In this document: positions 1-15,043 of the stretch, piece after piece | Layout: each line of letters starts with the position of its first letter | Position numbering within the stretch: the first letter of the stretch is position 1 | Source of the DNA: a virus | Taxonomy: Duplodnaviria > Heunggongvirae > Uroviricota > Caudoviricetes | Direction: 5' to 3' (one strand) | Virus record (IMG/VR): IMGVR_UViG_2541047845_000008 | Length of the DNA stretch: 15,043 nt | The notes under the pieces: generated by a model | Seen by the model: the letters and a program-made list of their open reading frames with translations, nothing else | The model's database searches: none | What the model was told of the DNA's origin: nothing | Made by a program: the position numbers and the translations under genes

Positions 1-165
1 ATGGCAAAGCCGATCATCACGCTCAATGGCCTAAAAATCGTCATTATGTTGGGAATGCTGGTCATTATTCTCTGCGGTATCCGTTTTGCCGCCGAGATCA
101 TCGTGCCGTTTATTCTCGCATTATTTATTGCTGTTATATATAACTTATTTCACTTAACACATTGA
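1..165 (+). pseudogene. tqsA: Truncated 5' fragment of an AI-2E family transporter gene (TqsA/YdgG-like), 54 codons, interrupted by the element
   Basis: Frame-1 ORF from ATG at 1 to TGA at 163-165 (below the ORF-track size cutoff). Translation [46 protein letters not shown] is a hydrophobic N-terminal membrane segment that I recall as the start of E. coli TqsA. The reading frame then runs into YNLFHLTH-stop in AT-rich sequence from about nt 136-141. Identification is from memory, not a search. Confidence 0.5.
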
Positions 166-658: not shown

Positions 659-940
659 TTACGTACGCAGTCGTTCCGGCTTCTTCCAGTGGTACGTTAT
701 TTTCTCCTTCTCCCGATACATCTCCACGCGGCGACGGTAGGCCAGCAACTCAAGAACTCTGGTTCGTATGTTGCGCATATCCACGCCATTAAGTTCTATA
801 CCATCACGGCGCATCACCTCAGCAACAACACGCGCATAGTTTTCGGCTGTCACGCTGTCCGGCTGCGTGGCCTGTTCGTCAGCCTGCTGGCTGATTCCGG
901 CAACGCGGCGGATTAATCCCGTTATTTCGGCTTCTGTCAT
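659..940 (-). CDS. Hypothetical protein (93 aa), last gene of the packaging operon
   Basis: ATG at 940 preceded by a GAGGT Shine-Dalgarno; starts 14 nt after the TerL stop. No family recognised. Confidence 0.55.
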   Translation of the reverse strand: MTEAEITGLIRRVAGISQQADEQATQPDSVTAENYARVVAEVMRRDGIELNGVDMRNIRTRVLELLAYRRRVEMYREKEKITYHWKKPERLRT

Positions 941-953
941 GCTGCTGACCTCA

Positions 954-2615
954 TTACACCCCGCTAAATTCTTCCAGTTTCTGGCGGTGGCTGTCGCTTA
1001 TATCAAAAGCAAAATCCTCATGCTCTGCCTGGAATGTACCAAACGCCATCAGCGCCGCCACGCTCGGGTCTATCTTGTTCGGTGATTTTTTCTTGTTCGG
1101 CTTGATATTGGCGTTCGCGTCACTCTGCATCACGACGTTACTCATCGACCAGGACAACACCGGATCGCCACGATGCACAATCACCCTGCGGTTAACAAAA
1201 ACTTCGAACGATTTCGCCGCCGGACTGAATCTGAGGTAGGTTTGCGGGAACGGCTCCACCTCAAAACCTGCCCCCTGTAATTGCGTTCTGAGATGCGTGG
1301 CGTTCCACGTATCAAAGCCCACCAGCCTGATATTAAATTTCTCCGCGTCCTGCATGATGTCATCTCTGATCCGGTCGTAATCAATGCAGTCGCCAGGCGT
1401 TGTGCGTATCCAGCCCGCTTTAGCCCACTGACGATAGACAGCGCGGTTTTTATTGGCGGGGTTCTGTAGCTGGAACTCCGGCAGATAATGACGGGAAACC
1501 AGCATAATGGTTTTACCGACCGGAAAGGCATAGCACACGCTGGAAATATCGCTTGTGGATGATAAATCCAGCCCCGCGTAACACTCCTGGCCGTGTAAAT
1601 CTTCCTCCGTGAACGTTCCGGCGCACTCCGCCCATGCACCGTTACCCATCCACGGCGTAGCCCCCTGACACCAGATATTGAATCGCTTGGTGAGCATTTC
1701 CACCCACTGCGACGGAATACCCCGCGCTTTCTGGATGGTTGAGGCCAGTTTTTCACGATCGACGGAAACATCGATATTTGGATTCGCCTTTATCCACATC
1801 GCCGGATCGTCAACCTCGCTTTCATCATCCAGCTCGTAAATCAGAACGAACATGGATTCGTTCATCTCTTCACCATCCAGTATCTGACAGCAATAGTCAT
1901 AGTGTTGTTTACAGGCTGAAACAACGTTGCTCCCCGATGTGGTGATGGCAAATAACAGCCCCTCCGGACGCGCCCCCATCCCCATATCAAGTGCGGAATA
2001 AACCCCGTTGTCTGGGTGCAGGTGATATTCATCCACAATGGCAAGACTCGGGTTTGTCCCCTCAATGGTTGCCGCTTTTGCTGCCAGTGGCTTTAACAGG
2101 CTGTTGGTTTTCGGGTGTATCACCTTATGCGCCTGAATATTCACCCGCCTGCGTAACGGTCGGGATAAAAGGCACATCTGACGCGCATCATCAAAGACGA
2201 TCCGCGCCTGGTCACGGCTCACCGCTGCGGTGTAGATATCCTGCTGACCGTTCTCCATAATCAAAAACCAGTTAGCCAGAATCGCGGCGGTCGTGGATTT
2301 CGCATTTTTGCGCGGCACTTCGATAAAGGCGCTCGTGTATTTGCGCCGTCCGGTGGCCTTAACCTTAAAGCCGAGGATGCACGCAAAGGCGAACTGCTGC
2401 CACGGCTCCAGCTCAATGGGTCTGCCACGCATCGGCCCTTTTACGTGCGCGCACACCCTGGAAAAGGCAATAAACCGCTCCACAACCTCACGATCGAACG
2501 TGTAAAGGGGGCTTTCAAGGTCCGAAAAGTACCGTTTAACGGCCTGTTTCAGCCGTTTACAGGCCGGAATTTTGCCCGTTTTTACGTCTTCTGCGTACTT
2601 ATTCCAGGCGGTCAA
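954..2615 (-). CDS. Phage terminase large subunit
   Basis: 553 aa. N-terminus MTAWNKYAEDVKTGKIPACKRLKQAVKRYFSDL is typical of HK97-type large terminases, with an ATPase P-loop-like PRKNAKST and an acidic C-terminal nuclease region. Apparent TTG start at 2615 with GAGGA Shine-Dalgarno, overlapping the TerS 3' end by 17 nt. Confidence 0.9.
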   Translation of the reverse strand: MTAWNKYAEDVKTGKIPACKRLKQAVKRYFSDLESPLYTFDREVVERFIAFSRVCAHVKGPMRGRPIELEPWQQFAFACILGFKVKATGRRKYTSAFIEVPRKNAKSTTAAILANWFLIMENGQQDIYTAAVSRDQARIVFDDARQMCLLSRPLRRRVNIQAHKVIHPKTNSLLKPLAAKAATIEGTNPSLAIVDEYHLHPDNGVYSALDMGMGARPEGLLFAITTSGSNVVSACKQHYDYCCQILDGEEMNESMFVLIYELDDESEVDDPAMWIKANPNIDVSVDREKLASTIQKARGIPSQWVEMLTKRFNIWCQGATPWMGNGAWAECAGTFTEEDLHGQECYAGLDLSSTSDISSVCYAFPVGKTIMLVSRHYLPEFQLQNPANKNRAVYRQWAKAGWIRTTPGDCIDYDRIRDDIMQDAEKFNIRLVGFDTWNATHLRTQLQGAGFEVEPFPQTYLRFSPAAKSFEVFVNRRVIVHRGDPVLSWSMSNVVMQSDANANIKPNKKKSPNKIDPSVAALMAFGTFQAEHEDFAFDISDSHRQKLEEFSGV

Positions 2616-2955
2616 GCTCGTCCTCTTCTTCTGTTTCCGGTGGATTTTTACGGCGGCTTATCGGGTCAAAACCGAGCAAGGAGGCCATTTTTATCATCAC
2701 TCTTTCAGCGTCGGATTTTGCGCTTAATGCGGGGTTTCTGCTCTCGCCGCCCTGACTGTTAACAATGCTGAACCCGCGCGCCGCAAGGTCTGCGACGGCT
2801 TTCCGGTAAATGGAGTAGTTGACACAATACAGTTCCAGATTGCTCCAGTCGGCGGGGGTCAGGTCTCCCCGTTCCGCAAGCTGCCGCGATTTTTCCCGCC
2901 ACTGCTTCACGGCGATGTCATCCAGGTAGGCGGGGGCTTTCGGTGGTCTTGCCAT
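2599..2955 (-). CDS. Phage terminase small subunit (P27-family-like)
   Basis: 118 aa, MARPPKAP... N-terminus and acidic C-terminal tail; positioned immediately upstream of and overlapping TerL, downstream of HNH and the putative cos region. Confidence 0.8.
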   Translation of the reverse strand: MARPPKAPAYLDDIAVKQWREKSRQLAERGDLTPADWSNLELYCVNYSIYRKAVADLAARGFSIVNSQGGESRNPALSAKSDAERVMIKMASLLGFDPISRRKNPPETEEEDELDRLE

Positions 2956-3243
2956 GCTTATTTTTCGTCAGATTATTTTTCAAAAAATTCCCGTGCATAA
3001 AAATTTGAGGAGGCGTTCGGTGTCCGGCAGGGACGGTTTCGTCCTGAAAACCACCCCCACCCCCTCTGACGGCCTCACCAGCGATTGCGAAAACATTCCA
3101 TGACCTCGCGGTCACGGTCGGTTAATCGCTTCGCTGTGGTGCGTTCTGTGCGCCCTGTCCTGTTGGCTTTGTGCCCTGTCTCCTGTGTCTTCCATGCGTC
3201 ATGCTGCCTTATCAGTCCACGAATCAGCCTGTTTTGTTCCTGT
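2956..3243. other. Putative cos / terminase recognition region
   Basis: The only sizeable non-coding gap (about 290 bp) inside the packaging module, between HNH and TerS, where HNH-dependent cos phages of the HK97 type place cos. Contains palindrome GGACG-GTTT-CGTCC (about 3031-3044), a C-rich tract CCACCCCCACCCCC (about 3052-3065), and two near-identical pyrimidine-rich direct repeats CTGTGCGCCCTGTCC / TGTGCCCTGTCTCC (about 3146-3185). Confidence 0.35.
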
Positions 3244-3684
3244 TCAGTCATCATCGCCATACATCCAGTCGTTACGGTGTGCCGCCCGTTCTTCCTGCTC
3301 GCGATACATGCCCGCTTTACGGTTTGCTTTCGTGGCGGGATCTTCCCGCGTCGTCTTACGGTTGTGGCACGTCTGGCACAATGCCTGGTGATTCCACTCA
3401 GGCCAGAAGAGAACATCACCGCCACCATTGATGGGGATAATGTGATCCACCACAAAGGCTGGCGTATAAATACCCTCAGCCAGACAACGCACACATAACG
3501 GATTTTTTTTCAGGTACATGGCGCGGTATTTGTCCCACTGTCGGGAATACCCACGTGCGCGGCGGTGTCCCCGTCTGGCATCCTCTGCACGCCATGCAGC
3601 CCGCCTGTGCTCTTCACACTTGCCGGACTTCACGCGCTTATTACAGCCCGGCTCAGTGCATCGCCTTAATGGTTGCCACGGCAT
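3244..3684 (-). CDS. HNH endonuclease (terminase-associated)
   Basis: 146 aa with paired cysteine clusters (CTEPGCNKR..KC and LCVRC ... CQTCHNRK) and HNH-like motif VDHIIPINGGG ... WNHQALCQTCHN. Start codon overlaps the stop of the upstream connector gene. Confidence 0.9.
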   Translation of the reverse strand: MPWQPLRRCTEPGCNKRVKSGKCEEHRRAAWRAEDARRGHRRARGYSRQWDKYRAMYLKKNPLCVRCLAEGIYTPAFVVDHIIPINGGGDVLFWPEWNHQALCQTCHNRKTTREDPATKANRKAGMYREQEERAAHRNDWMYGDDD

Positions 3685-3980
3685 CAGTACACCCCCACAT
3701 CACGATAAACCGACCAGAGCATCCCTACAGCCAGCGGGATTTCTTTTGTGTCTGCATCCCCGACCGTGGCCCTGTATTCGTACAGTTGCGACACGTACAT
3801 CATGCAGCCAATCTTTATGGCTGGCGTGAACTCCAGCCCGTCATCAAAGCGCCTGCCGATGTGTTTCTGGCACACCTCAAGCGCGGCGGCGATGTATCCG
3901 CTGATTAACTGGTCTTCCTCATTGCCATCAATGCGGCAATGGAGTTTCACTTCTTCCAGGGTGATTAATTCTGCTGTCAT
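3684..3980 (-). CDS. Phage gp6-like head-tail connector protein
   Basis: 98 aa; N-terminus MTAELITLEEVKLHCRIDGNEEDQLISGYIAAA matches the characteristic LITLEE-K-HLRID...D-LI-.YI-AA pattern of gp6-like connector proteins. Overlaps neighbours at both ends. Confidence 0.75.
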   Translation of the reverse strand: MTAELITLEEVKLHCRIDGNEEDQLISGYIAAALEVCQKHIGRRFDDGLEFTPAIKIGCMMYVSQLYEYRATVGDADTKEIPLAVGMLWSVYRDVGVY

Positions 3981-4315
3981 CGTGGCGCACCTGTTTTACA
4001 AAGAATTTCCAGACGAGTCCTTTTACCGTCGGGAACGGGGGGGCCAACAATATCAAGCTCATTGCCGGAATAAGCCCCCGTGAGTACCCGTATCCGGCTG
4101 GATGCCGTAACATCCCCACGAAAACGGATCCAGACTCTTACGGTTGCCTGTGCCGTTTCTGCACCTGCGGTCATGCGTTCCCGTCCGCTGATCCCTTTCA
4201 CCTCCGCCCATACGGTGGCAACATCCTCCCATGTGCTTTTCATTGCACCGGAAGGGAGGCGGGAAAGTTTCGCGCTCATGATGACAATGCGATCCCTCAT
4301 GCTCCCCGCTCTCAT
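3977..4315 (-). CDS. Phage head closure / head-tail adaptor protein
   Basis: 112 aa; size, position after the portal gene and the motif VWAEVKGISGRE...TVRVWIRFRGDV resemble head-tail joining proteins. ATG at 4315 overlaps the portal stop. Confidence 0.7.
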   Translation of the reverse strand: MRAGSMRDRIVIMSAKLSRLPSGAMKSTWEDVATVWAEVKGISGRERMTAGAETAQATVRVWIRFRGDVTASSRIRVLTGAYSGNELDIVGPPVPDGKRTRLEILCKTGAPR

Positions 4316-5526
4316 GATTTGCCCTCTTTATCGTCCTTTACTTCGATCTCCTGTTTCCAGGCCTGGCTGAACTCATCGCCACCATCACGCGGCGATAATC
4401 CCTCACGTTCGCGGGCTTCGTTCGGGCACATAACGCCGGACTTGATGCCGCGTTCATAGGTGGCAAAGCGTTCGCCAGGTGTGGCCCGTAACAGGTCCGC
4501 GCTGTCAAACTCCACCTGATACCGGATACCAGGTACAGGCGAGGCCACCAGCAAAGCATTTTTTATCTGCTGCTCAAAGTTCGCCAGCCACGGGCGCATC
4601 GTCATGGTCAGAAACGCGCGGCTTGCCTCGCTGAAATTGCTGTAGGTGCTGTTGCTGTATTCCTGCAGAAAAATCGGCGAGACGTTGAACATTCGGGCGA
4701 TGTCTTCAATGGTGAAGCGACGGGAGGCCAGCCATTCAGCATCCTGGTTACTCATGCCAAGCTGCTGATAGCTCATACCCCCTTCAAGAATGGGCGTTTT
4801 TCCGGCGTTTCTGGCTCCTTTGTAGCGTTCCAGTGCGGCTAATGCCTGTTTGCCCTTCACGCCGTCCAGCCATTCGCCTGACGTGATAACCCCTGCTGCC
4901 ATCATGCCATCACGCATCACGCTCGCGCCGTGGCGCTGTTGGGCCAGCCCAAGCCCCAGCGATTCGCGGCAGATGGTCACAGGTGAGCGCCCCATAAAGC
5001 CGTCATCCGTGGAGTAACGAAGGTGGAGAACCTCCCACGGTAAATAGTTGCGGGTGTTTCCGCTGTAAGCGTCAGTGATGCGGTAACGCCAGTTATGTTC
5101 CCCTGTCTGCTCAACATTCACCGACTGCGGCGGGTAAGGGTGCAAAGCCACCGGAAAACCATCACGCCCCCACTGAATCACCGCATAAGCATTACCGTTT
5201 AACAGGCAGTGGCGGACCATCATTCGCTTAAACTGATAGGGCGTCTGCCACGCGTTCGGGCGCTCGTTGAGGATATGATCGACCGGATGAGAATCAAGCC
5301 ACTCGCGGGCCTCCTTCCCCTTCTCATTGCGTACCAGGTACAGGTAGCATGGCATAGTAGCCACCGCCTCAGAGATGACCGTGACGGCGTTCATGACGGC
5401 GGGGAGTGATTCCGCTGTCCCCGATGATACGTACTCACCCGCCCCCGTGTTCGATGTGCCAGCCAGCGCCATAAATTCATCCAGCGTAAGGCTGCGATGC
5501 TCTTGTTTTCGTCTGAAAGGCCACAT
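4312..5526 (-). CDS. Phage portal protein (HK97 family-like)
   Basis: 404 aa; length, position adjacent to the prohead protease gene and conserved portal-like core; acidic C-terminus. Confidence 0.85.
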   Translation of the reverse strand: MWPFRRKQEHRSLTLDEFMALAGTSNTGAGEYVSSGTAESLPAVMNAVTVISEAVATMPCYLYLVRNEKGKEAREWLDSHPVDHILNERPNAWQTPYQFKRMMVRHCLLNGNAYAVIQWGRDGFPVALHPYPPQSVNVEQTGEHNWRYRITDAYSGNTRNYLPWEVLHLRYSTDDGFMGRSPVTICRESLGLGLAQQRHGASVMRDGMMAAGVITSGEWLDGVKGKQALAALERYKGARNAGKTPILEGGMSYQQLGMSNQDAEWLASRRFTIEDIARMFNVSPIFLQEYSNSTYSNFSEASRAFLTMTMRPWLANFEQQIKNALLVASPVPGIRYQVEFDSADLLRATPGERFATYERGIKSGVMCPNEAREREGLSPRDGGDEFSQAWKQEIEVKDDKEGKS

Positions 5527-5527
5527 A

Positions 5528-6103
5528 TCACACCCCCGCTAAATCCGCCCACCAGCGGCGATTATCCGCGCGTGGCATTTTTTCGGGGTGCTGCTCATAC
5601 AGGGAACGGCGGGCCAGATCCACGCCGGAATCAGGGTAAGCCGGTACGGATGTAACGGTAATTTCGTACAGTTCCGCCACCAGCACGGTGCGCACGCATG
5701 GATCTGTTGTGGTATCCCATACATCCTTACGGGAACGAAAGCCAAAGCTCATGCCGGATATATCACCACGTTTAACCAGTTCGATAACGTCCCGCCCTGT
5801 GCTGGTATCCGGTGGGGTCAGTTCAAAGCGTAACCCTGTGTCGTCCTCTTCCAGTTTCAGCGTGCCGGAACGGGTGCGCCCCAGTAACATGCTGTGGTCA
5901 TGCTCATACAGGCCACGAACGTCATTACCCGCCGCCAGCCACTCACTGAACGCCCCCCGCTGGAATTTTTCGTAAAACTCACCCCATAGCAGATCAGAAA
6001 GGTTATTCCAGCGAACAACGTAACCCGTCAGCGTACTGGCTCCGCTGGTGGTGATTTCTGATGACCGGATTTCCATGCTCTTTTTCATATTTTTTTCACC
6101 CAT
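5528..6103 (-). CDS. Prohead maturation protease (HK97 family-like)
   Basis: 191 aa; lies between the major capsid and portal genes. Alternative ATG starts at 6088 (GGTGA Shine-Dalgarno) or 6076 are possible. Confidence 0.8.
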   Translation of the reverse strand: MGEKNMKKSMEIRSSEITTSGASTLTGYVVRWNNLSDLLWGEFYEKFQRGAFSEWLAAGNDVRGLYEHDHSMLLGRTRSGTLKLEEDDTGLRFELTPPDTSTGRDVIELVKRGDISGMSFGFRSRKDVWDTTTDPCVRTVLVAELYEITVTSVPAYPDSGVDLARRSLYEQHPEKMPRADNRRWWADLAGV

Positions 6104-6111
6104 AAAACACC

Positions 6112-6135
6112 AAAGGGGCTTTTTAGCCCCTTTTT
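6112..6135 (-). terminator. Hairpin with flanking T-runs between capsid and protease genes (attenuator/terminator)
   Basis: Perfect 6-bp stem GGGGCT / AGCCCC with 4-nt loop at about 6115-6130, with T-rich flanks on both strands, immediately 3' of the capsid stop at 6139. Confidence 0.45.
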
Positions 6136-6138
6136 CTG

Positions 6139-7308
6139 TTAATCGCCGTTTTTCATCTCGAGGACTTTTATCGCGCGGGAGTCAACAACCCCGCCGCCGA
6201 TGTATTTATCCGTGTGTACCTTGTAGAAGCCCGGCTCTGTAATGTTGTCCGGTCGGGTACGGATCCCCGTTTCATGGTCAACGATGAAATAACCGCGCTT
6301 AAAGTCACCGACAGCCAGCGGCGTTTTGCCTTTGCCGATGTCCGGCATACTTTCCAGGTAATAAACAGGACGGCCCAGCAATGTGTCAGGTGCGCCCTCT
6401 TTGAGGCTGTCACGCCATACGTAATCACCGCTCTGGTTTTTCAGCTTCTGCAATGCTGCCGCAGTGTTCGAGTTCATCACCCACACGGCGTTCTTACGGT
6501 ATTTCGCTTTCAGCTTGTAGAGGATGTCGATCAGTTCGTCCGCTGTAATGGCGTCGGTTGTTGTAACCATTTTTTCAATGGTGCCAAAGGCGCGGGCTTT
6601 GTCGTTGTTGGTATCACGGGTGTAATTCAGGAAACCCTTCGGCTTGCCAGTACCGTCACCATTTACAAAATCATCTTCTTCGGTCGTGGCGAACGTGTCG
6701 GCGATTTCAGACGATAACCAGCCCAGCACATCCACTTCTGAAAAATCCAGGATTTCCTGCGTGGTTTTCGGGTAGGCATAGATCGGGTTAAGTTTGATGC
6801 TTACGCGCTCAACTTTCGGGGTTTCTGTTTCGGTTCGCTTGTTGCCCTCAGTGCCACGCCCCACCGTTGCGCCACCTGTGGAAACCAGTTTCTGGTATTC
6901 GTTTGATTTCGCCGTTTTCACCGTCGCAATCATTCGCATGACGCTTTCATCACTCAGTAACCGCATAACCTCGCGATCAAGCTCAGGGATAACGGTATAA
7001 CCACCGTCCTTGCCGCCGTTGGTGGTGGTGGATAATGAGCGAACGTCACCCGTTACGATGTAGTTGCGAAGTTCTGCGGGGTCAGTGGTCTGGCTGGCTT
7101 TACCTGGCTTGCTGCGCTCTTCGTCGGCAACGGCTTCAAGGCGGGAAATGTCTTTATCGAGGGATTCAGCTTTAGCGCGTAATTCGTCAAATTTTGCGCC
7201 CTCGGCGTCGTTAAGGCTGCGGTTTTCTTTTTCCGCGTTCTCCAGCATGTCGCGCATCTGATTTTTGATGGCGGTTTTCTGCTGGCGCAATTCGATAATT
7301 CTCGGCAT
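6139..7308 (-). CDS. Major capsid protein, HK97 fold
   Basis: N-terminal coiled-coil delta-domain-like region (MPRIIELRQQKTAIKNQMRDMLENAEKENRSL...) followed by a capsid core. The ORF track extends to 7353 on a TTG; ATG at 7308 is the more likely start (389 aa). Confidence 0.9.
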   Translation of the reverse strand: MPRIIELRQQKTAIKNQMRDMLENAEKENRSLNDAEGAKFDELRAKAESLDKDISRLEAVADEERSKPGKASQTTDPAELRNYIVTGDVRSLSTTTNGGKDGGYTVIPELDREVMRLLSDESVMRMIATVKTAKSNEYQKLVSTGGATVGRGTEGNKRTETETPKVERVSIKLNPIYAYPKTTQEILDFSEVDVLGWLSSEIADTFATTEEDDFVNGDGTGKPKGFLNYTRDTNNDKARAFGTIEKMVTTTDAITADELIDILYKLKAKYRKNAVWVMNSNTAAALQKLKNQSGDYVWRDSLKEGAPDTLLGRPVYYLESMPDIGKGKTPLAVGDFKRGYFIVDHETGIRTRPDNITEPGFYKVHTDKYIGGGVVDSRAIKVLEMKNGD

Positions 7309-7558
7309 AAAAAAAAGTCCTGATGCAAAGAGGAAAACACCAGGACGCGGCAAGACTCACGGTACGAGAACAAAAAGAAATGCACACCGATGCAGGCTTC
7401 CCGCCTGTTAACGCTGATGAGATTAACAGGCGGGAAAATGGTCCCAGCGTCCTGGCAACAGTGGCGAGAATAACCACGGTTCGGGCCTGATAAAATAAGC
7501 CAGCCATGCCGCTGAACAACCACGAACAACCACGCACAAATAATTTACAAAAGCTGAC

Positions 7559-7584
7559 AAAAAAAGCCCTGGTTAAACCTGGGC
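7559..7584 (-). terminator. Rho-independent terminator after the replication/regulation segment
   Basis: Stem-loop GCCCTGG-TTAAA-CCTGGGC (one mismatch) followed on the minus strand by U7 (plus-strand A7 at 7559-7565), directly 3' of the gene ending at 7592. Confidence 0.5.
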
Positions 7585-7591
7585 TGGGCCA

Positions 7592-7852
7592 TTAATTAAC
7601 GTCTTCCGGTGGTACTGATTGCACTGTGCGGGGCTTCACCTTTTCCAGATATGCGATGAGCGCATCAATCTGTTCAGGACCAGCCGCCAGAATTTCACCG
7701 GAAAGCGTGCTGCGTAAAAAACCATGATGATCAACCCAGAATATCGCCCCCGCCGCCAGGTGCTGGCGATAACGCTCCGTTGTCGTGTGGGCCGGATGTT
7801 CAAGGCCGAATAATTCGCGGTGTCGTTTAATTTCCTCTGTGGTTACTGGCAT
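7592..7852 (-). CDS. Hypothetical protein (86 aa)
   Basis: ATG at 7852 with AGGGGG Shine-Dalgarno; overlaps the 3' end of the upstream PerC-like gene by 10 nt. No family recognised. Confidence 0.55.
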   Translation of the reverse strand: MPVTTEEIKRHRELFGLEHPAHTTTERYRQHLAAGAIFWVDHHGFLRSTLSGEILAAGPEQIDALIAYLEKVKPRTVQSVPPEDVN

Positions 7853-8100
7853 GTTTCCCCCTTTAATTTATCTAATCCCATTTCAGCATAAACACGATCA
7901 GCGGCTTTTTTAATATCGCTGAAATTGTCCGGCCCGAGTGCTGGCCTTGTCGATTTTCTGCAACATTCCAGCCGTCGCATCGTGATGTGCTCCCGTTCCT
8001 TGTCTGTCTCCACCAGTAGCATGACTTCACCCCATCGCGCCGACGCTCTCCGGTAAAAGCCTTTCGCCTCGAGTTCTTCCGCTATGCGGTCATGTACCAT
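7843..8100 (-). CDS. PerC-like transcriptional activator (85 aa)
   Basis: From ATG at 8100 (GAGGGTGA Shine-Dalgarno; the track's longer ORF starts on a GTG inside ssb). The motif MVHDRIAEELEAKGFYRRASARWGEVM ... C..C ... DNFSD ... MGL matches my recollection of PerC/Pch-family small activators. Not search-verified. Confidence 0.5.
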   Translation of the reverse strand: MVHDRIAEELEAKGFYRRASARWGEVMLLVETDKEREHITMRRLECCRKSTRPALGPDNFSDIKKAADRVYAEMGLDKLKGETCQ

Positions 8101-8110
8101 CGTCACCCTC

Positions 8111-8521
8111 TCAGAACGGAATATCATCACCGTAAGGGTCATCGCCTCCCGCTGGTGGCTGATTACCCTGTGTGCCTGTGGTCTTGCGTCGGCTCCCACC
8201 AGGTCGCGCCGTTCTGGCACTGATTACGCTGTCTGCAATAACCTGCCAGCCCTGCCGCGTTTCCCCGTTCTGTCCGGTCCACTGGCTGACCTGCATCGTG
8301 CCGGATACGCTGGCAACGTCGCCTTTTTGATGTTTAGCCAGGAAGTCGGCCTGCTTACCAAATGCCATCACCGATAGCCATAACGTAGCCTGCCCATCCT
8401 GCGCCTGACTACATGGCAACGATACCGCCATACGTGCCAGCGTCATTGGTGTGCCCTTGCTGGTCTGTTTTACCTGCGGGTCGTCCACCAGCCGCCCGTA
8501 AGCTGCTATCTGTGCTGTCAT
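8111..8521 (-). CDS. ssb: Single-stranded DNA-binding protein
   Basis: 136 aa; OB-fold-like core (AAYGRLVDDPQV ... W..V.AFGKQADF ... KGD.V.V.G ... W) and the hallmark acidic C-terminal tip ...GGDDPYGDDIPF. Confidence 0.85.
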   Translation of the reverse strand: MTAQIAAYGRLVDDPQVKQTSKGTPMTLARMAVSLPCSQAQDGQATLWLSVMAFGKQADFLAKHQKGDVASVSGTMQVSQWTGQNGETRQGWQVIADSVISARTARPGGSRRKTTGTQGNQPPAGGDDPYGDDIPF

Positions 8522-9063: not shown

Positions 9064-10818
9064 TTATAAAAACGCGTCGCAATCGTCTGTTGTTATTGCG
9101 TTAGTCTGCGTTACTCCCTTAACTTTCCGCGTAATATATTCATGTCCGTAAACTTTCGCGGCTGGCTTCATAGCCTTGCCAAAGTCATTTACGTTTAGCG
9201 GTTTGCTCCTGCCTGCGTATGCCATAAACGCCAGATAGACGCGGTAAAGGCTGTTCCTGGTCGTGTACTTCACTGAATCGCCACCGCCCCCCATCATCAG
9301 GCCGCGCGCTTCCTCCAGAAAATTCAGGAACTGGCAAAACTCAATAACCGGATCCGTCTGTTGCTTTATTGCCAGTGCTTCATCACCGTCACGCTGTTCC
9401 AGTAGTAAAGCCCGTGCCTTCTCAGGGTCGGTAAAGTTCGCCAGCAATCGGCGGATAATGACAGGGATTTCAGCCGCAATCTTTTCCGGTAGCTCCCTGT
9501 CTTTTTCGGCCTCACTGACGATATTGTCGAAACGGAAAATTACGCGACGACGTGACACACCTCCGGCCCGTTCGGTGAATATCATCGGATTGTTATTGGT
9601 TGCCAGCACCACCGCCCTGATTACCGCCGTAAAACGCTTTTCATATTTCGGGTTAATTTCCACGGGGTCGCCGCCCGTGATTTTCTTGATGCCCGTTCCT
9701 TCGCCTGTATATTTCGGCTGGTCAGCCAGGACGATAAGACGACTCCCGACAACCTGCGCACGTCCACCAGCATCATCAAGCGATGTCATTTCAGCGCTTA
9801 CCGTGTTCTGTTTCCCTGCCAGAAGGCTGGCTATGTGCGTGAATGTACTTTTACCGCTCCCGCCATCTCCGGTGGCCTCAATAAACATCTGCCAGTCGTA
9901 CCGGTTCGCCATAATCATGTACAGCGCGGCACATATACGCATCATCTTGCGCGGGTCTTTTCCGGCTGCGTGCTCAAGCCATTTATGAAAGTTTGGCGCG
10001 TTATCGCGGATGTTCTCCCCTGGTGCTGGTGGCGTGTACTCAATGCCGTTGTGCGTGGTGATCCAGTTCTCCGGCGTGTGCGGGGAAAATTCCCCCGTTT
10101 TCAGGTCAAGCGCACCATTGGCGAACGGCAGCAAATCGCCGGACGGCTCGCCCATTGGTTCGGCAATAACTTTTAACGCTTCCACGGCGTTATTGATTAC
10201 GCGCTTGCTGAAAGTGGCCCTGTGCTCTGAATAGATCGCCACCATTTCGCGGCTAAGTTCCATTGTGCTGACCGGACACCATACCCCGCCGCGCCATACG
10301 TGAACGATTTCACTTTCAGGATGTACGCAAACGCCATCAAAGCGATCGGCAAGCAGCTGCGCGCGCTCACTGTCCGCCATCTGCGAAAGTTGCGCCTTTT
10401 GCTTTACCGGAAGCTCAATGACCAGACCATCAGAAAGATTCTGGCGCTCACGGGCCAGATATTCGCGCCAGTTCTCCACCTTCTGACCGTGCATACCCTC
10501 AGGATAAAAATTTGCATCCTGTACGCCTGCCGCCGCCAGCTTCTGGCCAATCGCCTTTATCATTACTGGCGCAAGATATCCGGCCCTGAATATGCGCACG
10601 GATTTTCTGCCTTCCGGCACAATTTGCAGCTTATCCAGTTCTGATAACTGCTGCTCCCCAAGCCACACAGGAGGCTCATTATCTCCGGCCATACGCGCAT
10701 CATGTTCCTGCCATTGTTTCGCGTGTGCCCAGGCATCACTACCCGCAAAAATAATGACTTCTGTTCCTTTGTGTTTTATGCCGCGTGACTGCTGTTTTAC
10801 GTTCGGTGCCAGTTTCAT
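9064..10818 (-). CDS. DNA primase/replicase, P4 alpha-like family
   Basis: 584 aa with Walker A GDGGSGKST and surrounding NTPase motifs; architecture resembles satellite primase-helicases. Its ATG overlaps the stop of the upstream small gene (ATGA). Confidence 0.85.
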   Translation of the reverse strand: MKLAPNVKQQSRGIKHKGTEVIIFAGSDAWAHAKQWQEHDARMAGDNEPPVWLGEQQLSELDKLQIVPEGRKSVRIFRAGYLAPVMIKAIGQKLAAAGVQDANFYPEGMHGQKVENWREYLARERQNLSDGLVIELPVKQKAQLSQMADSERAQLLADRFDGVCVHPESEIVHVWRGGVWCPVSTMELSREMVAIYSEHRATFSKRVINNAVEALKVIAEPMGEPSGDLLPFANGALDLKTGEFSPHTPENWITTHNGIEYTPPAPGENIRDNAPNFHKWLEHAAGKDPRKMMRICAALYMIMANRYDWQMFIEATGDGGSGKSTFTHIASLLAGKQNTVSAEMTSLDDAGGRAQVVGSRLIVLADQPKYTGEGTGIKKITGGDPVEINPKYEKRFTAVIRAVVLATNNNPMIFTERAGGVSRRRVIFRFDNIVSEAEKDRELPEKIAAEIPVIIRRLLANFTDPEKARALLLEQRDGDEALAIKQQTDPVIEFCQFLNFLEEARGLMMGGGGDSVKYTTRNSLYRVYLAFMAYAGRSKPLNVNDFGKAMKPAAKVYGHEYITRKVKGVTQTNAITTDDCDAFL

Positions 10819-11934: not shown

Positions 11935-12151
11935 GGTGCACCTCCTGCACATCAGCCATGATAATTTTTCCGGCCTTATCCAGTGCCTGATCGGCTTTTA
12001 GCTGCACAAATGCTAAATAATGGAAGATGCATTCTGATTCTCTGGCTGCGTGTTTATGCGCCCTGTCAGCAATAACAGAAATATCAATCAGCGCATGCAT
12101 TAGCGTTATGATGGCTTCGGCGGCTGCGTCCGGACGGGTGTTATTGCACAT
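11927..12151 (-). CDS. Hypothetical protein (74 aa)
   Basis: ATG with GGAGG Shine-Dalgarno; overlaps the downstream gene by 8 nt. No family recognised. Confidence 0.5.
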   Translation of the reverse strand: MCNNTRPDAAAEAIITLMHALIDISVIADRAHKHAARESECIFHYLAFVQLKADQALDKAGKIIMADVQEVHHA

Positions 12152-12347
12152 GGCACACCTCCTGACGAATACGGGCAGCGAATACCATCACGCAGCCAGC
12201 CGGGGATTGCTGGCGTGCTTCCTGTTCGCTGGTGGCCTCAATGGTAATCACGCGCGGTTGTGCCGTGCTCAGGGCGATAAAACGCCAGATGTATTTATTC
12301 AGGTTGTGCGAATCCCGCCCTTGCGGGTGTGTGGTATGATTTAACAT
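12141..12347 (-). CDS. Hypothetical protein (68 aa), first gene of the leftward operon
   Basis: Only the 3' 68 codons of the 354-aa track ORF are plausible: ATG at 12347 with GAGGT Shine-Dalgarno, just downstream of the predicted leftward promoter. The rest of that ORF runs antisense through the regulatory region. Confidence 0.4.
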   Translation of the reverse strand: MLNHTTHPQGRDSHNLNKYIWRFIALSTAQPRVITIEATSEQEARQQSPAGCVMVFAARIRQEVCHVQ

Positions 12348-12443
12348 AGCTACCTCGATACTTTCGCTATCGTTGGTGGTTAGAAGCCCCGTTACTGCTC
12401 CTACAGTGCGGGGTTTCGTCGTTTCTACACCTTGCCTTAATAA

Positions 12444-12497
12444 GGTGTTGAACACCAATTTAAATCGAGGTGTTAAACACGTCAAGTGTTGAACACT
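12444..12497. promoter_or_regulatory. Three palindromic operator-like sites in the divergent control region
   Basis: GGTGTT-G-AACACC (12444-12456, perfect), GGTGTT-A-AACAC (12469-12480) and AGTGTT-G-AACACT (12485-12497, perfect); centre-to-centre spacing about 25 and 16 bp, between the leftward operon and the rightward small regulator gene. Confidence 0.6.
12457..12485 (-). promoter_or_regulatory. Candidate sigma70 promoter of the leftward operon
   Basis: On the minus strand: TTGACG (-35, plus 12485-12480), 16-17 nt spacer, TTAAAT/TAAATT (-10, plus about 12463-12457). Operator sites overlap the -35, spacer and start region. A rightward candidate (TTGAAC at 12489-12494, 17 nt, CATACT) lies back to back. 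Confidence 0.4.
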
Positions 12498-12546
12498 TAT
12501 TTTTTTTCCTGCATACTGCATTTGTTTTTTATGAAGGGTGCTCAAC

Positions 12547-12726
12547 ATGGCGACAAAAGCAGTAAACGCAAAATCACAAACAGTTGCGGCAAGGGTTCCA
12601 CATGAAGTTATGAACAATGTTGAGGCGGTAAAAATGCCCGGCGAAAGTACAGGGCAGTTTGTTACAGCTGCATTAAAGCGGGAAGTTGAATACCGCCAGC
12701 GTCGCAAGGCCAAAGAATCAGAATAA
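12547..12726 (+). CDS. Small ribbon-helix-helix-like DNA-binding protein (putative island regulator)
   Basis: ATG at 12547 with AAGGG Shine-Dalgarno (the track starts on GTG at 12538). The pattern beta-strand (QTVAARVP), helix (HEVMNNVEAV), turn (KMPGES), helix (TGQFVTAALKREVEY), then a basic tail fits the RHH (Arc/CopG-like) fold. Encoded next to the operator array. Confidence 0.5.
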   Translation: MATKAVNAKSQTVAARVPHEVMNNVEAVKMPGESTGQFVTAALKREVEYRQRRKAKESE

Positions 12727-12783
12727 TCACTATCAGCGCCGTGGCGTGAGGTACTCCGGCGCATTGCTTTACAGGTCAGTACT

Positions 12784-12993
12784 ATGAGCAAAAAACACCG
12801 ATCAGCAGATGAGATTTTTGCAGAACAACGAAGATTGCTTTTGCAAAGTATCATTTCACGCCAGCAAGAGAAGGCGCGAGCTAAACAAATGCCACCAAAT
12901 ACAGAACCAGCGCCTACAAGATTTGCGCTTGATGACTTTCTCGATAAACACCCCAGGGTAATGAAAGCAAACAAAAACCGCCCACCAGGCTGA
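12784..12993 (+). CDS. Hypothetical protein (69 aa)
   Basis: ORF downstream of the RHH gene on the same strand, followed by a strong terminator. No family recognised. Confidence 0.4.
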   Translation: MSKKHRSADEIFAEQRRLLLQSIISRQQEKARAKQMPPNTEPAPTRFALDDFLDKHPRVMKANKNRPPG

Positions 12994-13088
12994 TCACATT
13001 GCCCACCAGCCTGATAGCGGCTATCATCCCCGTGCTTATGTTTGAGATCACACACACAAACGGCGCAGCGGGTTATCTGTTCAGAAAG

Positions 13089-13116
13089 GCGGCTCCATTT
13101 CGGGGCCGCTTTTTTT
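13089..13116 (+). terminator. Rho-independent terminator of the rightward regulatory transcript
   Basis: GC-rich stem GCGGCTCC / GGGGCCGC (8 bp including one G-U) with loop ATTTC, followed by T7 (13110-13116). Confidence 0.6.
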
Positions 13117-13262
13117 ATTCCTGAAAAACCCCAATTTTGTTGTTTTTCAGTTTCACCAGGGCGAACGAATCCCCGCCCACGTTCTGGCGTATATTCAATC
13201 TTCATGGTTATAGCTCTGTGTTCAGATGATTGATGTGTGGCGGCTGCGTGCCGCCAGCGTGA

Positions 13263-13451
13263 TTAATGAACTGCCTTGCAGCTATCCTTCCAGGCCAGAA
13301 CCTCGGATAAAGACCAGCCAACGGAACGACCGCCAAGTTTACGACGTGATGGGAATTGTCCGGCCTTTTCCAGGCGGTAGCGACACGTACGGCTAAGGCC
13401 GGTTAGTTTTTCGCATTCTTTTTCACGTATAAACCGATCAGTGCTTAACAC
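13263..13451 (-). CDS. alpA: AlpA-family transcriptional regulator / excisionase-like protein
   Basis: 62 aa; motif EKLTGLSRTCRYRLEKAGQFPSRRKLGGRSVGWSLSEVLAW is the characteristic AlpA helix-turn-helix signature. GTG start with AAGGGGG Shine-Dalgarno; directly downstream of int. Confidence 0.85.
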   Translation of the reverse strand: MLSTDRFIREKECEKLTGLSRTCRYRLEKAGQFPSRRKLGGRSVGWSLSEVLAWKDSCKAVH

Positions 13452-13825: not shown

Positions 13826-15043
13826 TTATTTTCTTCTGGCTACTGGTAGCGTGGTTACGTTTTCATGTGTTCCCGCCAGTATCCCTAACCGCTCCGTCCA
13901 CATATCCAGCGCATTGCGTTTAGCATCCAGATAACGGGAATGATTATAAACTCGCTGCATTCCTGGCATCTGGTGGCCTGTAAGCTGCTCCACGACATGC
14001 GGATCAACGCCTAAATCGTTCAGCATGGTTGTAAAGGTGCGCCGGATGTCATGCAGTGACCAGTGAGGGTGATTAAGCCTCCTGTGCACTAATCTGCCGT
14101 ACTGCGATACGCTGGCCTCCTGTTTCACTTCCCCCAGCAATAAGCCCGTGTGCCTGTTCTGCTCCACCAGCTGCGTGACGAACGGCAGGATCGCTTCCGG
14201 TATGGGCCGGAATATTGCGACCTTCGTTTTGCTGTGCTCCTTCGGAACGGTCCATAGCATTTCCGTAAAATCCCACTCCCCGATCTCCGATAACCTCAGT
14301 TCTACCGTTCTGGCTCCGAAGACAATCAGGAGGCGGATTAACGCGACGTAGTAAGGGGAAAATATTTTTTTGTCCAGTGCCTGCAATAATTCGCCAAGTT
14401 CTTTGTTACTTAAGACACGTTCGCTTATATCCGGTTTTTTCCCAACGTCCGCCACGTTCAGATCGTCCAGAACGTTGCTGATTGCATAGCGCCGCCTACG
14501 GCAAAACTTAAGCGCCTGTTTGCACGCCTGTAGCACGAATCCGGCAGTAACAGGCGTTCGCTTTGCCACCTGGTCAAAACAGGCCAGCCAGTGCCGTAGC
14601 TCGCATTTATCCAGCGGCATAGCACCAATCTGCTGTATTACGTGATTATTAAGTCGCCTTTTCAGGGCGATATAATCCACGCGGTTTTCCTTTACGTAAT
14701 ACTCAAGCCAGTAGGTGAGCGCATCGCCAACCGTTACCGGCTTTAACGCTTCCTGTACGGTGTAATTAAGCTCATGACGTGGATTTTTCCCCTCTGCCAG
14801 CCATGCGCGACACTGGGCGGCTTTTTCCCTGGCTGATTTCAGGCTCAGATCAGGATAATTTCCCAGCTTAATGCGTTCCGGTGGTGCCCCCCTTCCCGTT
14901 CCGGCCCTGTAAGTGAAATACCAGGTCAATTTCCCTGATGTTAAATATTTCACGCTCAGGTTTCCGCCATCACTATAAAACGTGTTTTTCTCCGCTGGCT
15001 TACCATGAAGTTTCCTTAGCAAGGTATCGCTCAGTTTGTTCAT
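13826..15043 (-). CDS. int: Tyrosine recombinase, P4-type integrase
   Basis: 405 aa; N-terminal arm-binding-like region, core-binding domain, and catalytic C-terminus with R ... HDIRRT ... and YNHSRYLD (catalytic Tyr region). Its ATG is the last three bases of the window, so its upstream region and the adjacent att site are outside the window. Confidence 0.95.
   Translation of the reverse strand: MNKLSDTLLRKLHGKPAEKNTFYSDGGNLSVKYLTSGKLTWYFTYRAGTGRGAPPERIKLGNYPDLSLKSAREKAAQCRAWLAEGKNPRHELNYTVQEALKPVTVGDALTYWLEYYVKENRVDYIALKRRLNNHVIQQIGAMPLDKCELRHWLACFDQVAKRTPVTAGFVLQACKQALKFCRRRRYAISNVLDDLNVADVGKKPDISERVLSNKELGELLQALDKKIFSPYYVALIRLLIVFGARTVELRLSEIGEWDFTEMLWTVPKEHSKTKVAIFRPIPEAILPFVTQLVEQNRHTGLLLGEVKQEASVSQYGRLVHRRLNHPHWSLHDIRRTFTTMLNDLGVDPHVVEQLTGHQMPGMQRVYNHSRYLDAKRNALDMWTERLGILAGTHENVTTLPVARRK

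Follow-up and report, generated by a model that had tools for sequence, protein, structure and literature searches.

We find that the 15,043-nucleotide (nt) stretch of DNA analysed here (hereafter referred to as the window) holds, with a probability of roughly 0.93, an Escherichia coli capsid-forming PICI (cf-PICI) of the EcCIEDL933 clade, integrated in the host gene tqsA, in which the packaging block is a self-contained head and packaging operon. On the minus strand, this block reads major capsid protein (MCP), hairpin, prohead protease, portal, head closure protein, head–tail adaptor, HNH endonuclease, a 288-nt gap, TerS and TerL. Throughout the gammaproteobacterial cf-PICI lineage the capsid-first order is invariant and ancestral, and the window's element has undergone no recent rearrangement. 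The gene order was already known, and the window is an unremarkable E. coli representative of a published family; we found nothing at odds with this membership.

The cf-PICIs make their own capsids, take only tails from helper phages, are present in ~10% of E. coli genomes and move from one species to another. For the prototype EcCIEDL933, from O157:H7 EDL933 (Alqurainy et al. 2022/2023), helper induction, small satellite-encoded capsids and the use of helper tails only have been shown experimentally, and mutations reported in the cf-PICI literature show that each packaging gene is required for island transfer and dispensable for the phage. This gene order is diagnostic of such elements at a textbook level, and is useful chiefly for recognizing the window as a satellite and not a defective prophage.

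The island extends from about position 145 to at least position 15043 (~14.9 kb), within the ~10–18 kb that He et al. give for cf-PICIs. Some part of the window has a match in 5,424 of 5,426 E. coli genomes, the packaging block is present in 538 of 5,426 complete E. coli genomes (~10%), and in E. coli CFSAN061761 both tqsA halves flank near-identical islands. Besides the packaging block, the window contains the following features:

1–144, plus strand: 5′ fragment of tqsA (host AI-2 transporter gene), split by the island, as judged from the tqsA halves flanking near-identical islands
7843–8100/8220, minus strand: PerC-family regulator, upstream of the packaging operon (Pfam PerC, E 7.4e-36)
8111–8521, minus strand: SSB, upstream of the packaging operon (Pfam SSB, E 2e-16)
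9064–10818, minus strand: primase/replicase (Pfam D5_N, DUF5906 and Pox_D5)
13263–13451, minus strand: AlpA-like excisionase/transcriptional regulator (phrog_2790, E 2.5e-17)
13826–15043, minus strand: tyrosine integrase, left end of the island (Pfam Arm-DNA-bind_3 and Phage_integrase)

The integrase at one end with an AlpA-type regulator, and the replication module of primase/replicase and SSB, are features by which cf-PICIs are recognized. Searches against Pfam and PHROGs, which covered ORFs with one or both collections and those shorter than 60 aa in part, gave no match to tail, holin or endolysin/lysin families; among the proteins scanned, the tail and lysis components that SatelliteFinder treats as ‘forbidden’ are thus absent. 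The SatelliteFinder/MacSyFinder cfPICI model uses 11 core component types, all of which appear to be present. At ~15 kb and with no tail or lysis families detected, the element does not fit the profile of an HK97-like tailed temperate phage, which has tail, lysis and immunity modules and a genome of ~35–45 kb. Across the whole window, an Rfam scan returned no family and ARAGORN no tRNA.

The packaging genes were identified with Pfam and PHROGs, with all E-values between 1e-9 and 1e-178. In the direction of transcription, the region comprises:

7309–7591, minus strand: intergenic region preceding the capsid gene; contains a perfect 14-bp inverted repeat (7398–7436)
6139–7308 (mechanical ORF 6139–7353), minus strand: major capsid protein, HK97 fold (Pfam Phage_capsid, E 5.5e-72; phrog_10, E 8.7e-93)
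6112–6133, minus strand: terminator-like hairpin immediately following the stop codon of the capsid gene, AAAGGGGCT-AAAA-AGCCCCTTT, then GGTGTTTT
5528–6103, minus strand: prohead maturation protease, S78, HK97 type (Pfam Peptidase_S78, E 1.2e-47; phrog_80, E 7.2e-67)
4312–5526, minus strand: portal (Pfam Phage_portal, E 8.2e-92; phrog_12, E 3.3e-116)
3977–4315, minus strand: head closure/head completion protein Hc1 (Pfam Phage_HCP, E 1.4e-23; phrog_25, E 6.6e-32)
3684–3980, minus strand: head–tail adaptor Ad1, gp6-like (Pfam Phage_connect_1, E 1e-10; phrog_40, E 8.3e-34)
3244–3684, minus strand: HNH endonuclease, packaging accessory nuclease (Pfam HNH, E 1.9e-9; phrog_144, E 8.4e-45)
3075–3260, minus strand: small conserved ORF of 61 aa between HNH and cos (phrog_3173, E 1.8e-29)
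2956–3074, minus strand: candidate cos region, with a G-run (GGGGGTGGGGGTGG), a ~30-nt spacer and ACCGAACGCCTCCTCAAATTTTTATGCACGGGAATTTTTTGAAAAATAA
2599–2955, minus strand: TerS, P27/Terminase_4 family (Pfam PF05119, E 1.3e-23)
954–2615, minus strand: TerL (Pfam TerL_ATPase and TerL_nuclease; phrog_9, E 1.4e-178)
659–940, minus strand: conserved hypothetical protein of 93 aa after terL, the island's last gene (phrog_1561, E 5.6e-56)

These assignments, all on the minus strand, bear out the capsid-to-TerL order that the initial annotation had read from the sequence alone, and the hairpin that it placed between the capsid and protease genes is real. That annotation was attached to positions 3244–7308, which hold the genes from capsid to HNH only; the cos candidate, TerS and TerL lie at 954–3243. 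The capsid gene is taken to start at the ATG at 7308, as RefSeq annotates it in an island of 98.8% identity. The Phage_capsid match spans residues 117–399 of the 404-aa ORF, and the N-terminal extension of ~100 aa is probably a delta (scaffolding) domain. Judging from gene order, Hc1 and Ad1 appear to correspond to the ‘adaptor’ and ‘connector’ of He et al., respectively. The small 61-aa ORF overlaps the end of the HNH gene by 17 nt and is annotated as hypothetical in EDL933, 86-24, SB0258h1 and CFSAN061761; terL and terS likewise overlap by 17 nt, and the 93-aa gene is annotated at the same position in EDL933, 86-24 and SB0258h1. The region at 7309–7591 is a probable promoter or regulatory region of the operon. 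As a sigma-70 scan for promoters on the minus strand found none ahead of either the capsid gene or terS, we assign no promoter position.

The order of the block equals that of EDL933 and the published description, and among 160 related loci it is shared by every one of sufficient length. All 80 genome loci, drawn from more than 20 genera, are consistent with it (56 show all eight genes and none deviates), as are all 80 IMG/VR loci, most of them on contigs of 10–19 kb and a few on contigs of up to 51 kb. The order is identical in EDL933, O157:H7 strain 86-24, SB0258h1 (98.8% DNA identity), vB_KppS-Ant and Pasteurella Pmp8. Alqurainy et al. describe exactly this capsid-first order as the conserved organization of proteobacterial cf-PICIs, the criteria by which He et al. 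search for cf-PICIs include the same series of genes, and De Sousa et al. found the core component organization of these satellites to be very conserved. The initial annotation had allowed that the order might be standard in a known phage lineage; it is indeed standard, in every related locus of sufficient length, in EcCIEDL933 and in the literature, but in a lineage of satellites rather than of phages.

All eight proteins belong to HK97-type families, and the element has no detectable tail or lysis genes, as might be expected of a recently rearranged or decaying HK97-like prophage that had lost its tail and lysis genes and had its head genes shuffled in this strain. However, the same order with intact ORFs recurs in all 160 related loci, which span the Enterobacterales, Pasteurellales and Orbales, and in ~10% of E. 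coli genomes, the packaging genes are tightly coupled by overlaps of 1–17 nt with no pseudogenes, the nearest true phages have at most ~42% capsid identity and the canonical order, and the literature places cf-PICIs at a deep separation from phages. Origin as a prophage remnant is therefore effectively refuted.

A comparison with HK97 locates the difference in the head genes. HK97 and the HNH-dependent cos phages (the helpers HK106/HK446, SfIV and VW-6S) use the same protein families as the window, which encodes an HK97-fold capsid, an S78 protease, a portal and an HNH-dependent cos terminase. The HK97 record has the usual order given in the initial annotation (TerS, TerL, portal, protease and capsid), continuing with Ad1 and Hc1 and ending with HNH. 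HK97, SfIV and VW-6S share the canonical series TerS–TerL–portal–protease–MCP–Ad1–Hc1 followed by tail genes, which the window does not show, and HK97-type phages carry tail, lysis and lysogeny modules, whereas neither tail nor lysis genes were detected in the window. In the HK97 record, 319 nt separate the end of HNH from the right cos end and terS begins 49 nt in from the left end, so that the circularized genome has the same HNH–cos–TerS–TerL junction as the window; the placement of HNH and cos, which the initial annotation had counted as a contrast, is in fact the same topology. Deriving the window's order from that of HK97 takes at least three changes: the head block moves upstream of HNH, and portal–protease–MCP and Ad1–Hc1 are each reversed. 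A simple inversion was rejected as the origin of the order, because all genes share one orientation. Of the ‘distinct, compact rearrangement’ proposed initially, the difference from HK97 in the head genes, the compactness and the conservation hold, but the layout is not new: it is the published cf-PICI layout, and the cf-PICI literature already describes ‘different genetic organisations’ relative to the helper phage HK106.

The module could instead have come from a lineage of tailed phages whose normal order is capsid–protease–portal–Hc1–Ad1–HNH–cos–TerS–TerL, and some records with this order have indeed been deposited as phages (vB_KppS-Ant, 16.5 kb; Pmp8, 15.3 kb), while a 106-kb ‘Klebsiella phage P12620-1’ record holds a related block. 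Nevertheless, vB_KppS-Ant and Pmp8 have an integrase and a primase but no tail module and are therefore cf-PICIs, and the capsid matches of at least 59% identity in the phage collection are all such records or fragments. Capsid identity to the closest phages found reaches at most ~42% (SfI/SfII), with 39% for VW-6S and 35% for SfIV, and HK97 is not among the matches listed. Capsid homologues occur in 585 phage records; in the sample of these that was inspected, all bona fide phages examined or positioned fit the canonical order. We thus consider acquisition from such a phage lineage very unlikely, and favour inheritance of the order within the cf-PICI lineage.

The closest characterized system is EcCIEDL933, whose order is identical to that of the window from int to the hypothetical gene after terL. 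Compared with the EcCIEDL933-type O157:H7 island, TerS (WP_000113645.1 in that island, the same accession as in EDL933) is 100% identical, TerL 98%, portal 97%, protease 95%, integrase 93% and HNH 84%, whereas Ad1 (74%), MCP (68%) and Hc1 (51%) are divergent. The packaging proteins thus show 51–100% identity to that island, in line with the 50–90% (or more) similarity to EcCIEDL933 that the cf-PICI authors report across the family. EcCIEDL933 also shares the small ORF and the conserved cos-like motif between HNH and terS, and has a hairpin at the same position after the capsid gene. It differs in the attachment site (roxA/phoQ in EDL933, tqsA in the window) and in the primase (DUF927, versus a D5-like protein of 584 aa). 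According to He et al., the neck proteins Hc1 and Ad1 determine which helper tails are used; the mosaic pattern of capsid and neck proteins, a modest addition of this analysis, bears on how satellites change their capsid and tail specificity.

The 288-nt gap between HNH and TerS (2956–3243) consists of most of the 61-aa ORF and 119 nt of non-coding DNA, in which we place the candidate cos on the basis of its conservation, its position and a marginal profile match to HK97. Most of 63 distinct HNH–terS intergenic sequences from Enterobacterales, Pasteurellales and Orbales share the cos-like motif that precedes terS. When a profile of the region built from 58 relatives was compared with a 10.2-kb joined HK97 sequence, the best match straddled the physical cos junction, which is supportive but not decisive because its E-value is only 0.011; a blastn comparison of the gap with the HK97 cos junction returned nothing beyond chance matches of 7–12 nt. 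The HK97 cos and the putative cf-PICI cos have a similar build, with a G-run, a ~30-nt spacer, an ACCGCC-rich box and then an A/T-rich stretch, and by analogy with HK97, a modest addition to the published picture, cleavage is predicted near positions 3000–3015. We also considered record ends as physical termini and rejected them: the vB_KppS-Ant record ends after ...GGTTTTCAGGAC, yet ~85 nt of the conserved region are missing from it, and two IMG/VR contigs (L146 and L170) likewise end within the cos-like motif. As these three ends may represent either cos or assembly breaks at G/C runs, they were set aside as evidence for cos.

The capsid–protease hairpin has a 9-bp stem with five G–C pairs and a 4-nt loop. 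Of 67 distinct related sequences, 61 carry a G+C-rich hairpin at this location (mean of 6.5 and maximum of 12 in shuffled sequences), and a few Xenorhabdus relatives lack it; the hairpin's conservation across the clade is a further modest addition. In HK97, a putative terminator is likewise annotated right after the capsid gene. The capsid-first order and the conserved hairpin probably set capsid output high compared with that of the genes downstream, which are translationally coupled. More tentatively, we suggest that the cos of cf-PICIs is architecturally homologous to that of HK97, that the capsid-first position with its hairpin is a selected expression device and that the hairpin gap is a recombination boundary, a joint proposal that we regard as possible rather than probable. 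If it is correct, the cos architecture would be conserved from Escherichia to Pasteurellaceae and Orbaceae, the capsid-first position and hairpin would set the capsid-to-portal stoichiometry, and the capsid allele could be swapped independently, as in the 68% identical capsid beside 95–100% identical protease, portal and terminase. The cf-PICI papers examined contain none of these three ideas.

By homology with the prototype, a helper phage would induce the island, which AlpA and integrase functions would excise, as shown for EcCIEDL933, and which would replicate via its own primase. A single co-directional operon would be transcribed from MCP through protease, portal, Hc1, Ad1, HNH and the small ORF, and across cos into TerS and TerL. 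The capsid protein, portal and S78 protease would build small, satellite-sized procapsids, a size assumed from the prototype since the capsid allele is only 68% identical. TerS, TerL and HNH would recognize and cut the island's own cos, positioned between the HNH and terS genes as it is in HK97, and would package a single unit of ~15 kb, and Hc1 and Ad1 would complete the neck, on which helper-phage tails would dock.

Among other relatives, EcCIGN02175, KpCIDSM30104, vB_KppS-Ant and Pmp8 have the same order in 13–18 kb elements combining int, regulator and primase with the packaging module; their capsids are 59–73% identical to that of the window and their accessory genes differ; in vB_KppS-Ant, for instance, a gene with a tape-measure annotation lies between terL and int. 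The classical PICIs EcCICFT073 and EcCIED1a share the left half (the int, alpA and primase modules and the induction logic), whereas classical PICIs are described as lacking their own portal, head–tail adaptor, connector and terL and as redirecting the helper packaging machinery. A 1.6-kb ‘ECO95 1-6-1’ fragment (host ATCC 43895) belongs to a different cf-PICI lineage.

The gene order of the window is the standard, published hallmark of an already known satellite family, the phage-inducible chromosomal islands that form capsids (cf-PICIs). Every substantial gene is encoded on the minus strand.

Features of the window, in transcription order; named protein families are from Pfam and PHROGs
13826–15043, minus, tyrosine integrase
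13263–13451, minus, AlpA-like excisionase/regulator
Between the AlpA-like regulator and primase genes, minus, several small conserved hypothetical genes
9064–10818, minus, D5-type primase
8111–8521, minus, SSB
7843–8100, minus, PerC-family regulator
7592–7852, minus, hypothetical gene (86 aa)
Upstream of the capsid gene, intergenic region (283 nt)
6139–7308, minus, major capsid protein (MCP)
6112–6133, hairpin in the 35-nt gap between the capsid and protease genes
5528–6103, minus, S78 prohead protease
4312–5526, minus, portal
3977–4315, minus, head closure protein (Hc1)
3684–3980, minus, head–tail adaptor (Ad1)
3244–3684, minus, HNH endonuclease
3075–3260, minus, 61-aa open reading frame (ORF; phrog_3173) overlapping the HNH gene end
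2956–3074, non-coding DNA (119 nt)
2599–2955, minus, P27-type small terminase (TerS)
954–2615, minus, large terminase (TerL)
659–940, minus, hypothetical gene (93 aa)

The genes from the protease through the small ORF, as well as TerS and TerL, abut or overlap by 1–17 nt. This map matches the initial annotation, which therefore described the capsid-first order, the hairpin and the HNH–TerS gap correctly; its range, 3244–7308, covers the capsid through HNH genes but ends at HNH, and so misses the cos candidate as well as the genes for TerS and TerL.

In the HK97 record, the left end is followed by TerS (50–535), TerL, portal, a putative terminator, protease, MCP, a second putative terminator, Ad1, Hc1 and the tail genes, and the last gene encodes HNH (39054–39413), ending 319 nt from the right end. 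The SfIV and VW-6S records show the same canonical order, and the window therefore differs from these phages in its head-gene order, as had been proposed. Whereas the head block lies downstream of TerL in the phages, it lies upstream of HNH in the window, with portal–protease–MCP reversed and Ad1–Hc1 likewise. A single inversion cannot account for this change, because all the genes keep one orientation. By contrast, the claimed difference in HNH and cos placement arises only because the HK97 map is drawn as linear: in circular or concatemeric HK97 DNA, HNH, cos, TerS and TerL sit side by side, in the order seen in the window and similarly spaced.

The closest capsids among the phages of the phage collection are at most ~42% identical to that of the window, and in the other phage matches the capsid gene lies ~4.4–5.6 kb from the terminase end, compatible with the canonical order. 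Every record with a capsid identity of at least 59% is satellite-like or a fragment, namely vB_KppS-Ant and Pmp8 (15–16.5 kb), one 3.8-kb fragment and a block within a 106-kb Klebsiella record. vB_KppS-Ant, Pmp8 and the 106-kb 'Klebsiella phage P12620-1' record are deposited as phages (LR881103.1, locus L002; OR544139.1, locus L004; PQ569648.1), but the first two are cf-PICI-like satellites and the third contains a cf-PICI-like block. A gene annotated as tape measure lies between terL and int in vB_KppS-Ant (16.5 kb), and one annotated as tail terminator lies upstream of the capsid gene in Pmp8 (15.3 kb).

Related loci were compared in two scans. The first covered 80 loci from one-genome-per-species contigs of Escherichia/Shigella, Enterobacter, Kluyvera, Citrobacter, Kosakonia, Pantoea, Erwinia, Serratia, Rahnella, Pectobacterium, Proteus, Providencia, Xenorhabdus, Gilliamella, Frischella and several Pasteurellaceae. 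All eight genes occurred in the window order in 56 loci, eight had this order without a tblastn-detectable copy of the fast-evolving Hc1, and 16, mostly on short or cut contigs, had a shorter run in the same order; none of the 80 deviated. The second scan covered 80 IMG/VR loci on contigs mostly of 10–19 kb, with a few up to 51 kb. The full order was found in 53, Hc1 was undetected in 21 and a shorter run in the same order was seen in four; one locus had an extra Hc1 match ~5 kb past terL, and in one, terL preceded the capsid gene, as would be expected of a permuted contig.

The 6.5-kb block was present in 538 of 5,426 complete E. coli genomes, always in the chromosome, with best matches in SB0258h1 (98.8%), ZH063 and IAI39; O157:H7 strains matched at ~93% over 82% of the block. 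In SB0258h1, 86-24, CFSAN061761 and EDL933, it makes up the right half of an island of ~15 kb with the integrase at the boundary. These islands share the window's gene order, down to the small ORF that follows HNH and the hypothetical gene that follows terL. The island of EDL933 lies between roxA and phoQ and fits EcCIEDL933 (15.4 kb), the prototype cf-PICI. Window positions 1–144 hold the 5′ part of tqsA, a host gene (AI-2 transporter) interrupted by the island; integration sites of related islands differ (hpt/gcd in SB0258h1, roxA/phoQ in O157:H7). The window has the size, integrase, AlpA and primase of a cf-PICI and a complete eight-gene packaging module in cf-PICI order, its packaging proteins are 51–100% identical to those of the prototype, and Pfam/PHROGs scans found no tail or lysis families among the proteins scanned. 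Alqurainy et al. described the capsid-first order ending in hnh–terS–terL as the conserved organisation of proteobacterial cf-PICIs, and noted that the packaging modules of the satellite and its helper phage HK106 "have different genetic organisations"; the cf-PICI search criteria of He et al. name this series of genes too, and De Sousa et al. found the organisation of core components to be very conserved across 969 cfPICIs. The suggestion of a distinct rearrangement is thus partly supported: the order is distinct from phages but is the published standard of cf-PICIs.

A stretch of ~110 nt upstream of terS is conserved across most of the HNH–terS sequences compared (63 distinct ones). These include sequences from Pasteurellales and Orbales members in which the flanking proteins share only ~55–75% identity with those of the window. 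The satellite motif consists of GGGGTGGGGG, ~30 nt and ACCGCCCGCCCCCTCAAATTTTTACGCACGGCAATTTTTTTGAAAATAA, and the HK97 termini share this architecture (GGGCAGGGGGGGGG, 29 nt, ACCGCCGCCAAA / GTTTGAATTTAACGC). A profile of the satellite region, searched against 10.2 kb of HK97 sequence, gave a single best match straddling the physical cos junction (E = 0.011). Conservation, architecture and profile match support the putative cos placed between HNH and TerS in the initial annotation; predicted cleavage, by analogy with HK97, would fall near 3000–3015. The strongly conserved motif at 2956–3074 is non-coding and spans three orders of Gammaproteobacteria, and three independent assemblies (vB_KppS-Ant and IMG/VR contigs L146 and L170) end within it. 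HNH–terS gap lengths among relatives cluster at ~118–143 and ~264–292 nt, with others scattered, and the 61-aa ORF may be absent from short-gap relatives.

In 61 of 67 distinct related sequences, the capsid stop codon is directly followed by a G+C-rich stem and then a T-rich stretch; shuffled controls averaged 6.5 and reached at most 12. The relatives have 30 different stem-arm pairs, with a different, longer stem in Proteus. The hairpin is absent from Xenorhabdus loci L041, L042, L047, L055 and L061, in which the next ribosome-binding site immediately follows the capsid stop codon. In the HK97 record, too, a putative terminator is annotated just past the capsid gene, and the hairpin is therefore a shared trait rather than a novelty. 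It likely acts by partial termination or transcript stabilisation, so that capsid protein exceeds the downstream products.

TerS (100%), TerL (98%), portal (97%) and protease (95%) are 95–100% identical to those of the O157:H7 island (EcCIEDL933-type), and capsid, Hc1 and Ad1 are 68%, 51% and 74% identical. He et al. reported that cf-PICIs diverge in a region at the adaptor and connector genes, and showed that the two encoded proteins determine the choice of helper tails. An independent exchange of the capsid allele, bounded on one side by the hairpin gap, seems to have taken place, which is a small new observation.

In experiments with EcCIEDL933, the helper induced the island via alpA, the island replicated, small capsids were built of island proteins, packaging relied exclusively on the island's own TerS, TerL and HNH, and helper tails were required. 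By homology, the window element would work by this mechanism. The need for HNH matches the HK97 paradigm, in which HNH is reportedly required for packaging.

Most of a 354-aa mechanical ORF at 12141–13205 is spurious, a family match (phrog_6196, 'transcriptional repressor') being confined to the final ~90 residues. Pfam/PHROGs recognised no gene in the ~800 nt from 12420 to 13260, and both GC skew and AT skew reverse sign in ~12420–13260. The 283-nt intergenic region preceding the capsid gene contains a perfect 14-bp inverted repeat (TTCCCGCCTGTTAA / TTAACAGGCGGGAA, 11-nt spacer, 7398–7436), which could bind a regulator or attenuate the packaging operon; the PerC-family regulator gene lies just upstream.
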